In this document: positions 5,106-6,499 of the stretch, piece after piece
Layout of the letters: each line of letters opens with the position of its first letter
Numbering within the stretch: the first letter of the stretch is position 1
DNA from: Heptranchias perlo
Taxonomy: Eukaryota
Reading direction: 5' to 3'
Assembly: GCF_035084215.1 (NCBI RefSeq)
Contig: NC_090370.1
Coordinates: forward strand, 62,001 to 126,000
DNA length: 64,000 bases
Notes under the pieces: generated by a model
What the model was told of the DNA's origin: nothing
The model's input: the letters and a program-made list of their open reading frames with translations, nothing else
Database searches by the model: none
Program-made: the position numbers and the translations under genes

Positions 5106-6210
5106 CTAGGTAAAAGGCGCACAAGGGTTAGAGGGCGTCTCAATGCTGGCACGAGACCCACGAGATCTGCGCTGTCTGTTTATCATCTCTCAGCTGGCCG
5201 AGTAAGAAGGGATAAATAAAACACCACGCCGCAGCTTCAGAGGTCAAACTTAAGCAGGACTCTGCACTCCAAGGTTCTGTGAGGGGAGACGGGGACTGGG
5301 AAGGTGCAGCCTATAATTTACAGGATCAAATAATGTCTCTGGAATTAAAAATAAGAAAAAAAAAAGGAACTGCGAGGTACAGTGGGTTAAACCTTGCACT
5401 TTGACCTCTGGGATCAAGGCTCAATCCCAGCATAGACTGATGGGGTGAAAGTTTGGGGCAGTCCTAATTCAGTTCCCCACGGTTCTACACCACAAAACTA
5501 TCCCCCAACTTGGTAATTTAATTCAGAAAGGCCACTGGGTGGCTGGTGTGGAAACACGTTACACTGGTACAGTGGGGCTTAAGCGTGTTGTCGTACCAAA
5601 GCGAGGAGGAAGCTTTACTCTGCACCTGGCCATGACCTGGGGGTCGACACGGATACTGCTCGACGCTGACACGGGGTGCCTGAAGAGAAGAATCTCATTC
5701 CCACCTTGATGAGGACAGGTAGTAATCGCATTACTTGGGCAGATAAACCACAGGTAGGGAGTGATCACTTCCTTGCTTTTGTCGTGGGCGATACCTGCAG
5801 TAGCACGGAAATGAAACAGACCTGCATCGCCACAAACGTGCAAGCAGGCCGTGGTACGTCCCTCTGCCCCCAAACGTACCGAGGAACTGGCTGCTATTTT
5901 TTCATATTAAAAGTGGCTTCTAATACGTGACTGGTGCCCGAATAGGCCTTCAGCAGAAGGCCACCATAAATGAACACTTGCGGTGAATTTCCGAAGCACG
6001 GGGAGATTGTAACGCAGCAACACAGGGTGCCGCACGGTCGTGGGACACAGGTACAACCCCACTTGACCTGGGCCACGCTGCTCTTGGCAGCTGAATCTAC
6101 ATCTCAACAAACTGTCAATACTGTTGGACAGAAACCGCTGTATTCTTAACGCCCCAGCCAAAGGAGGGTCTCCACATGTGGAGTGCCTACAGTTCTGATG
6201 CCTATCTACA

Positions 6211-6420
6211 TGTAAACAATTTTACAACACCAAGTTATAGTCCAGCAATTTTATTTTAAATTCACAAGCTTTCGGAGACTTCCTCCTTCCTCATTTACCT
6301 GAGGAAGGAGGAAGTCTCCGAAAGCTTGTGAATTTAAAATAAAATTGCTGGACTATAACTTGGTGTTGTAAAATTGTTTACAATTGTCAACCCCAGTCCA
6401 TCACCGGCATCTCCACATCA
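6211..6420 (+). mobile_element. Fold-back Penelope-like-derived non-autonomous element with a minimal hammerhead motif
   Basis: Near-perfect inverted repeat 6211-6382 plus tail ATTGTCAACCCCAGTCCATCACCGGCATCTCCACATCA. Direct repeat TATCTACATGTAA at 6203 and 6421. Confidence 0.8.
6293..6333 (+). ncRNA. Putative minimal type I hammerhead ribozyme motif
   Basis: AUUUAC-CUGAGGA-A-GGAGG(AAG)UCUCC-GAAA-GCUU-GUGAAU gives stem I, the catalytic core, stem II and a palindromic AGCU stem III. Activity is untested. Confidence 0.6.
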
Positions 6421-6499
6421 TATCTACATGTAAGCAAATGACTACACACATCTCAAGTGGGGGGGCTGGGGTGCGCGGAGAGGAGGTAGAAGGTGTTGC

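Follow-up and report, generated by a model that had tools for sequence, protein, structure and literature searches.

The 64-kb window, by which we mean the whole stretch of shark DNA (Heptranchias perlo) analysed here, contains parts of several genes transcribed from the minus strand. The exon at 4977-5105 belongs to an ATF1/CREB-type gene whose KID and bZIP exons are located 5-16 kb before the window; motif scans inside the window revealed no ATF1 KID or bZIP exon. A DIP2-like gene ends at approximately 24.45 kb, and a gene encoding chromo and chromo-shadow domains (CBX) has exons at about 45.0, 42.1 and 41.0 kb. The names ATF1 and CBX5 are ones that we assume from motifs and DIP2 synteny. 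The last DIP2-like exons (24451-29000) lie about 12 kb from the same-strand CBX gene, with a 200-N gap between them (38979-39178); since this leaves too little room for the remainder of DIP2, the spacing possibly reflects an assembly problem. Pfam analysis of the 280 stop-free frames of at least 50 aa below 40.5 kb identified only the DIP2-like exons, a LINE reverse transcriptase (RT) and a sub-threshold DUF501. The LINE-type RT fragment (27098-28636, minus strand; RVT_1, E 7e-33) is accompanied by 98% similar inverted pieces at 9806-10075 and 26731-26948. Tandem repeats make up about a quarter of the window (15,751 bases), and a 51-bp minisatellite recurs at 4024-4476, 35452-36012 and 39609-40724 in both orientations, its copies being 94-97% alike.

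Four related insertions are present in the window (Table 1), and a blastn search of its 64 kb with the arm at 6299-6420 as query gave none besides. Each insertion is flanked by its own exact direct repeat (TSD) of 12-13 bp, as the earlier note on this DNA had described, and the probability of finding one such repeat by chance in the search box is about 1e-4 each. Three of the insertions are hairpins of the reported size of about 130-180 bp (6211-6382, 8707-8839 and 46793-46971), with a 38-nt tail on one side only. In the numbering used below, 0 corresponds to C3 of the hammerhead core and the predicted cleavage product begins at +29. The 6.2-kb hairpin (172 bp) consists of perfectly complementary 83-bp arms (fold z = -27.6), and its minus arm starts one base inside the hammerhead core, the outer 5 nt overlapping the TSD. 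The 8.7-kb hairpin has the scrambled centre previously noted and lacks the core because its arms end at about +33 and +23. In the 46.8-kb hairpin the right arm runs from -10 and carries the tail and a core damaged by the change to CUGAGGG that had been observed before; its two arms are unlike at six sites, and the nearest relatives of each arm differ. The solo arm at 46.6 kb, said to start at the core, does begin near it (about -2) and is devoid of the 5' strand of stem I, with a folding probability for stem I below 0.08. Given that each of the four is 5' to the earliest coding exon that could be mapped, the intronic location previously assigned to them is plausible, and its attribution to ATF1 and CBX5 depends on the gene names discussed above.

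Table 1. Features of the four insertions, in window positions
Feature	Position	Strand	Remarks
Left TSD of 6.2-kb copy	6203..6215		13 bp
Inverted pLTR arm, tail-less, 6.2-kb copy	6211..6293	-	83/83 identical to query 2-84
Direct pLTR arm, 6.2-kb copy	6292..6382	+	starts at -7 relative to C3; 100% identical to intact element L031
Minimal type I hammerhead motif	6293..6333	+	buried in long hairpin
Hammerhead parts	stem I 6293-6298 paired to 6328-6333; core starting at 6299; stem II 6307-6319	+	predicted cut after 6327
38-nt PLE tail	6383..6420	+	stretch between short 3' end and ORF start codon in intact element
Right TSD of 6.2-kb copy	6421..6433		13 bp
Second fold-back insertion	8662..8848	-	12-bp TSDs 8662-8673 / 8837-8848; tail on left
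Solo tail-less arm, other subfamily	46631..46746	+	arm 46646-46733; 13-bp TSDs 46631-46643 / 46734-46746; stem I incomplete
Third fold-back insertion	46783..47023	+	12-bp TSDs 46783-46794 / 47012-47023

Following longer copies through the genome led to an intact element, L031, whose pLTR (L031 1033-1161) is 100% identical to window 6292-6420 over 129 nt. L031 comprises, in order, an inverted 453-bp truncated copy with a tail, a tailed 5' pLTR, a 902-aa ORF (1161-3866) and a tail-less 3' pLTR, the last base of the tail meeting the ATG of the ORF. The encoded protein matches RVT_1 (E 2.5e-10) and exhibits the motifs DKG and YIDD, a CX5CxxC linker at residue 753 and a GIY-YIG-type NVVY..YIGET. 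The Pfam GIY-YIG model gave no match to the C-terminal part of the query itself; many of its 786 homologues at E<=1e-30 carry a precomputed GIY-YIG domain (PF01541). The closest named homologues are from sharks, then from turtles and invertebrates, and the PDB contains no relative of known structure. According to the accessible part of PMC8557442, a CX2-5CxxC linker between RT and endonuclease (EN) is present in Neptune and Nematis and absent from Penelope/Poseidon; the 902-aa ORF has such a linker, and its motifs would place the element as Neptune-type. As in EN+ Penelope-like elements (PLEs), a single ORF joins the RT to a C-terminal GIY-YIG endonuclease and shares the terminus of the short copies, and the layout combines a partial-tandem pLTR, an inverted truncated copy, a one-sided tail and a TSD. 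On the basis of the 129-nt identity to L031 and of its RT/GIY-YIG ORF, the window copies are the pLTR of an autonomous, young Neptune-type PLE. The Penelope-like origin formerly proposed is thereby confirmed, and the autonomous RT plus GIY-YIG partner that it called for has been found.

Exact pattern matching across the 3.25-Gb genome yielded 98,955 occurrences of a 23-nt piece of the arm (approximately 99,000 arms), 30,214 of the core pattern and 6,875 hairpins with both cores no more than 30 nt apart, with no occurrence of the reversed control patterns. Arm lengths range from a few dozen bases up to almost the full element. At L033 (G000:C1:1506400-1510500), a nearly full-length ORF (804-3548) is situated on an inverted arm facing a short tailed arm, which shows that the arm without a tail may be the longer of the two. 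Separately, the gene model of a shark that is labelled as an isoform of epn2 (P0016) contains a 95% identical piece of the element's ORF, which is probably an annotation artefact or an exonisation.

The motif CUGANGA - A - stem II - GAAA - GCUU is present in window copies, and a complete core together with stem I is found on the plus arm of the 6.2-kb copy alone. A core-like sequence had been claimed for both strands; since the minus arms lack C3 (6.2 kb) or stem I (46.8 kb), the hammerhead is not complete on both strands in any window copy. The conserved core, the extra nucleotide, G10.1-C11.1 and the palindromic helix III positions identify the motif as the minimal type I hammerhead that had been recognised there, and the Rfam search suggested as a check returned no hammerhead family, merely spurious miRNA hairpins below threshold. 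Conservation was assessed in 71 arms (78 minus 7 duplicates) that reach -8 and were chosen by a downstream anchor, not by the motif. Minor alleles account for 16/852 cells at core positions (1.9%), 66/1065 in the 3' spacer (6.2%) and 100/426 at N7, loop II and the closing pair (23%). The hammerhead is, hence, a conserved motif of the family's pLTR.

Pairing was evaluated for a set of 37 variants, made up of the four window arms and 33 others that include their TATA box. As these were picked by the core pattern and are related, their core invariance is by construction and the following covariation figures are inflated: helices I and II are paired in 91.2% of cells versus 87.5 in shuffles (0/500), and two-sided changes occur in five helix pairs (3/500 shuffles), with slid controls pairing in 24-47% of cells. 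These data provide moderate support for the preservation of helices I and II by compensatory change, in agreement with the structure-conserving variation and core conservation anticipated across copies. The three stem II variants previously listed do exist; two of them are one-sided G-C to G-U changes, and only GGAGA/UCUCC is two-sided. A further, older-looking subfamily (L243, L247, L262 and L264) shows GGAGC/GCUCC in stem II or a G-G mismatch at the closing pair, together with a TATATA box. Folding predictions for the isolated motif give stem probabilities of 0.8-0.99 and 0.4 for the loop-closing pair, and the hammerhead stems form in part in the predicted leader. Within the fold-back hairpin RNA both stems have a pairing probability of 0.000; the hammerhead is predicted to be inactive there, which goes against the self-cleavage envisaged for the window copies.

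The copies had been attributed to a non-autonomous, retrozyme-like family, that is, a mini-element which is transcribed, cleaves itself and re-inserts as a unit. Short, very abundant, TSD-flanked copies with a conserved hammerhead would suit such an element, solo arms occur, and a preprint, in its accessible part, derives animal retrozymes from pLTRs (10.64898/2026.07.22.740005). However, the arm is identical to an autonomous pLTR, the interiors of 93 of 96 short hairpins are distinct (the three recurring ones being microhomology centres), short copies lack the TATA box, and the hammerhead stems are predicted not to form in the hairpin RNA. Moreover, a sample of 372 arms, drawn from 240 loci plus the window, contained no regular tandem array, with just 10 irregular same-strand neighbours closer than 500 bp. 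This alternative is largely refuted, and we would give it only a very few chances in a hundred; the copies are better described as independent truncated insertions of the autonomous element. A non-autonomous family with a master of its own was rejected on the distinct interiors and the pLTR identity, and a DNA-transposon MITE on the variable arm length, the asymmetric tail, the 12-13-bp TSD and the RT partner. Membership of the non-LTR retrozymes, recognised by head-to-tail tandems, was likewise rejected on the scarcity of same-strand neighbours and the dominance of the head-to-head arrangement.

To locate the arm ends, the first 100 anchors of contig C1 were taken as an unbiased sample, 54 of which belong to inverted pairs. 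Thirty-seven arms end at -20 to 0, three at -60 to -21, nine at -250 to -61 and 12 inside or past the core, while 39 run more than 250 nt further. The accumulation within 20 nt upstream of C3 could arise if the folded hammerhead, or its cleavage, halted the reverse transcriptase and so fixed both the arm ends and the fold-back, and the many ends inside stem I or the core point in the same direction. Nevertheless, 44,398/45,073 arms (98.5%) pass through the predicted cut site, and the clustering of ends is thus not due to cleavage; a search for a pile-up at the cut turned up 3/100 arms ending within +27..+31, every one of them at +31. Hairpins whose centre is close to the cut are also scarce (109 versus 6,875 with both cores). 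Among 50 of those 109 listed, 32 fold on the AAGCTT helix III palindrome and five have one arm starting exactly at the cut, both of which would suit a role of the hammerhead, whereas none has both arms starting there. The five one-arm starts are compatible with rare cleaved templates.

The position of the ends was further resolved by subfamily. A TATA box is present in every subfamily, at anything from 37 to 52 nt from the core. End samples were selected by pattern within the initial 31 Mb of a single contig and scored without gaps, with a few segmental duplicates included. In these samples, the subfamily with TATA at -39/-40 (74 arms, 43 short) has 14 ends at -10, one at -11 and one at -17; the ends between -15 and -17 number eight, including three duplicates. 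The subfamily with TATA at -46 (89 arms, 68 short) has 19 ends at -17, one at -18 and three at -10. The two peaks differ significantly (Fisher p 1.5e-6; 4.7e-6 with matched bins), and genome-wide 11,926 arms of the -46 subfamily reach -10, 6,141 reach -17 and 4,197 reach -20. For several ends at -10, microhomology leaves an uncertainty of 1-3 nt. Segmental duplication is illustrated by L107-L108 (G000:C1:3.997-4.012 Mb) and L104, where identical insertions occur three times.

Both walls are situated 29-30 nt downstream of the TATA box, the distance at which RNA polymerase II usually starts. For this reason, the walls at -10 and -17 are likely to represent the transcription start of the element, and the short arms may be cDNA of an uncut mRNA leader copied to its 5' end. 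The base at -17 is the A of an initiator-like TCA-TTT, which we take to fit the initiator consensus, the -10 base of the other subfamily presumably fitting less well. Because the ends spread from the wall to about +2, many cDNAs would stop or be trimmed within stem I and the core. A halt at the hammerhead is difficult to reconcile with these observations: the wall shifts with the TATA box while the ribozyme is unchanged, and it lies beyond a structure that the reverse transcriptase has already copied. We therefore consider that alternative improbable. The ribozyme does not set the arm ends; they shift with the TATA distance that a subfamily has and follow neither the core nor the cut. From the proposal in the earlier note that the motif shapes the insertion products, only the clustering of ends just upstream of the core is retained.

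The sample of 372 arms provided 131 unique inverted pairs, in 126 of which exactly one arm bears the tail (both arms in three, neither in two), a deviation of p 1e-31 from the half expected by free choice. The TSD measures 12-13 bp, the mode, in 92/131 pairs and was not detected in five; a search for a target consensus revealed nothing beyond AT-richness. The 3' ends of the arms fall into two groups about 38 nt apart. In 77 clean pairs, 13/50 arm differences separate alleles that are common in the family (against a null mean of 2.8 and at most 9 in any of 2000 draws), a G/C difference at N7 occurs in 7/77 pairs (null 0.1), and subfamily sites are discordant in 9/77; the 46.8-kb window copy, with its six differing sites, is outside this set. 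N7 discordance amounts to 9% versus 45% under random pairing, and no diagnostic difference was found in 68/77 pairs, so that a single template accounts for the majority just as well as two do. It is likely that the majority of pairs derive from one RNA or source and a minority from two templates, unless they were converted later; gene conversion could be the origin of discordant pairs. At L012/L013, L044, L045 and L206, foreign filler of about 40-200 bp lies between the two arms, each of which ends at the wall or close to it.

A published hypothesis (PMC3846280) derives the mirror arm from one cDNA or antisense template that folds back and primes itself. The identical or same-subfamily arms of most pairs and the recurrence of palindromic centres would be in keeping with such a process. 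By contrast, the arms within one TSD-bounded insertion differ at subfamily sites in the nine discordant pairs and in the 46.8-kb copy, both arms often stop at the same sense-strand wall, even across foreign filler (both at -17 in L044), and each arm ends at one of two fixed 3' sites. These features speak against antisense self-priming as the only route, and as a general explanation we find it unlikely. Priming from both ends is favoured over it by the one-tailed pairs (126/131) and the discordance at subfamily sites (9/77). Furthermore, the one-tail rule, the TSDs and the two 3' groups fit the in vitro behaviour of an Anolis PLE and suggest that both ends of a single cut are primed, with a different site selected at each.

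Taken together, these findings favour, with a probability of roughly 0.8, the view that the copies are dead, 5'-truncated pLTR insertions of an autonomous Neptune-type PLE, primed from both ends of a staggered cut and copied from an uncut leader up to its likely start. The parent element has the structure pLTR - 902-aa RT/GIY-YIG ORF - pLTR, with a TATA box, the hammerhead and a tail ending at the ATG within the pLTR. Judging from the TSDs, its endonuclease would cut the two strands of AT-rich DNA 12-13 bp apart. Each 3' end would then prime cDNA at one of two internal sites 38 nt apart, as in published in vitro work on another PLE, so that the tail site is used for one arm and the short site for its partner. 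On the 5' pLTR of the mRNA, the end positions suggest that cDNAs run as far as the start, or fall a few bases short of it, the start being about 30 nt downstream of the TATA box and just upstream of the hammerhead. Finally, the two cDNA ends would be joined through microhomology or filler, generating a head-to-head hairpin in which the hammerhead is carried along uncut as an ordinary conserved pLTR motif. In a more specific form, which we hold to be only slightly better than an even bet, the arms would record Penelope insertion itself: an asymmetric RT-endonuclease dimer primes both ends of the 12-13-bp cut, with one subunit working from the tail site and its partner from the short site, and copies uncut sense RNA to its capped start, using two RNAs in at least about one tenth of events.

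The closest known system is the insertion unit of EN+ PLEs, described (PMC3846280 and the accessible part of PMC8557442) as 5'-truncated copies with an adjacent inverted pLTR, a one-sided tail of 30-40 bp and a TSD. The shark family shares with it the head-to-head inverted pLTR, the optional tail at one end, the TSD, the partial tandems and the TATA and Inr-like pLTR motifs, and L031 is a full textbook unit. Unlike that unit, the shark copies are reduced to two 50-100-bp arms without an ORF and number in the thousands; the TSD is 12-13 bp, compared with 8-10 in published EN+ PLEs. Their abundance is high enough for the one-tail rule and the TATA-linked wall to become visible.

According to the available portion of PMC4209133, minimal hammerheads of pLTRs usually occur singly, in truncated copies, and now and then as pairs on opposite strands; in the pairs described for Schistosoma the two motifs are 100-700 bp apart. 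The shark motif has in common with those in that portion the core boxes, the extra nucleotide between 9 and 10.1, G10.1-C11.1, the palindromic 15.2-16.2 and the lack of helix III. As a putative ribozyme, it differs in a helix II of 5 bp, a helix I of up to 6 bp and a CUU triplet. No shark example was found in that portion.

The Anolis Poseidon PAc (Frangieh et al. 2024, PMC11167929) offers a biochemical counterpart. Its protein cuts and extends both strands in vitro, is a predicted dimer, accepts uncleaved RNA as substrate and starts reverse transcription at two internal sites bounding the tail. The tail lying between two internal RT start sites and the AT-rich targets are common to both systems; on the other hand, the shark element has a Neptune-type linker, and its hammerhead and tail precede the ATG, whereas in PAc they are inside the ORF. 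Inverted insertions and run-off at the RNA start are not treated in that study. Non-LTR retrozymes, in the consulted parts of PMC7229834 and 10.64898/2026.07.22.740005, are head-to-tail tandem units giving circular RNA. They resemble the shark copies in being short non-coding repeats with type I hammerheads and a pLTR relationship, but the shark copies are head-to-head, one-off and identical to an autonomous terminus.

The element is in itself an ordinary shark Neptune-type PLE, with an insertion layout and a pLTR hammerhead that are already published, and the mechanistic value of its copies is modest. The value of the family is statistical, in that it gives sharp numbers on inverted ends, the one-sided tail and the role of the hammerhead. 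The formation of inverted ends, the one-sidedness of the tail and the hammerhead's role are stated as open in PMC3846280, PMC11167929 and the accessible part of PMC8557442. A literature search, covering mainly the main texts of openly accessible papers, found no report of start-site run-off or a TATA-linked wall, of the one-tail rule in numbers, or of mixed-template arms. Additionally, intact young ORFs are at hand for biochemistry, and thousands of near-perfect 80-100-bp hairpins, some likely intronic, may be a source of dsRNA. If the more specific form of the proposal is true, priming of both ends by a dimer would replace the published hypothesis of antisense self-priming, and the hammerhead would be silent on nearly all templates that become inserted. 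That the copies stop where the RNA of the element likely begins, not at the ribozyme cut, is a hint at the route by which they were inserted.
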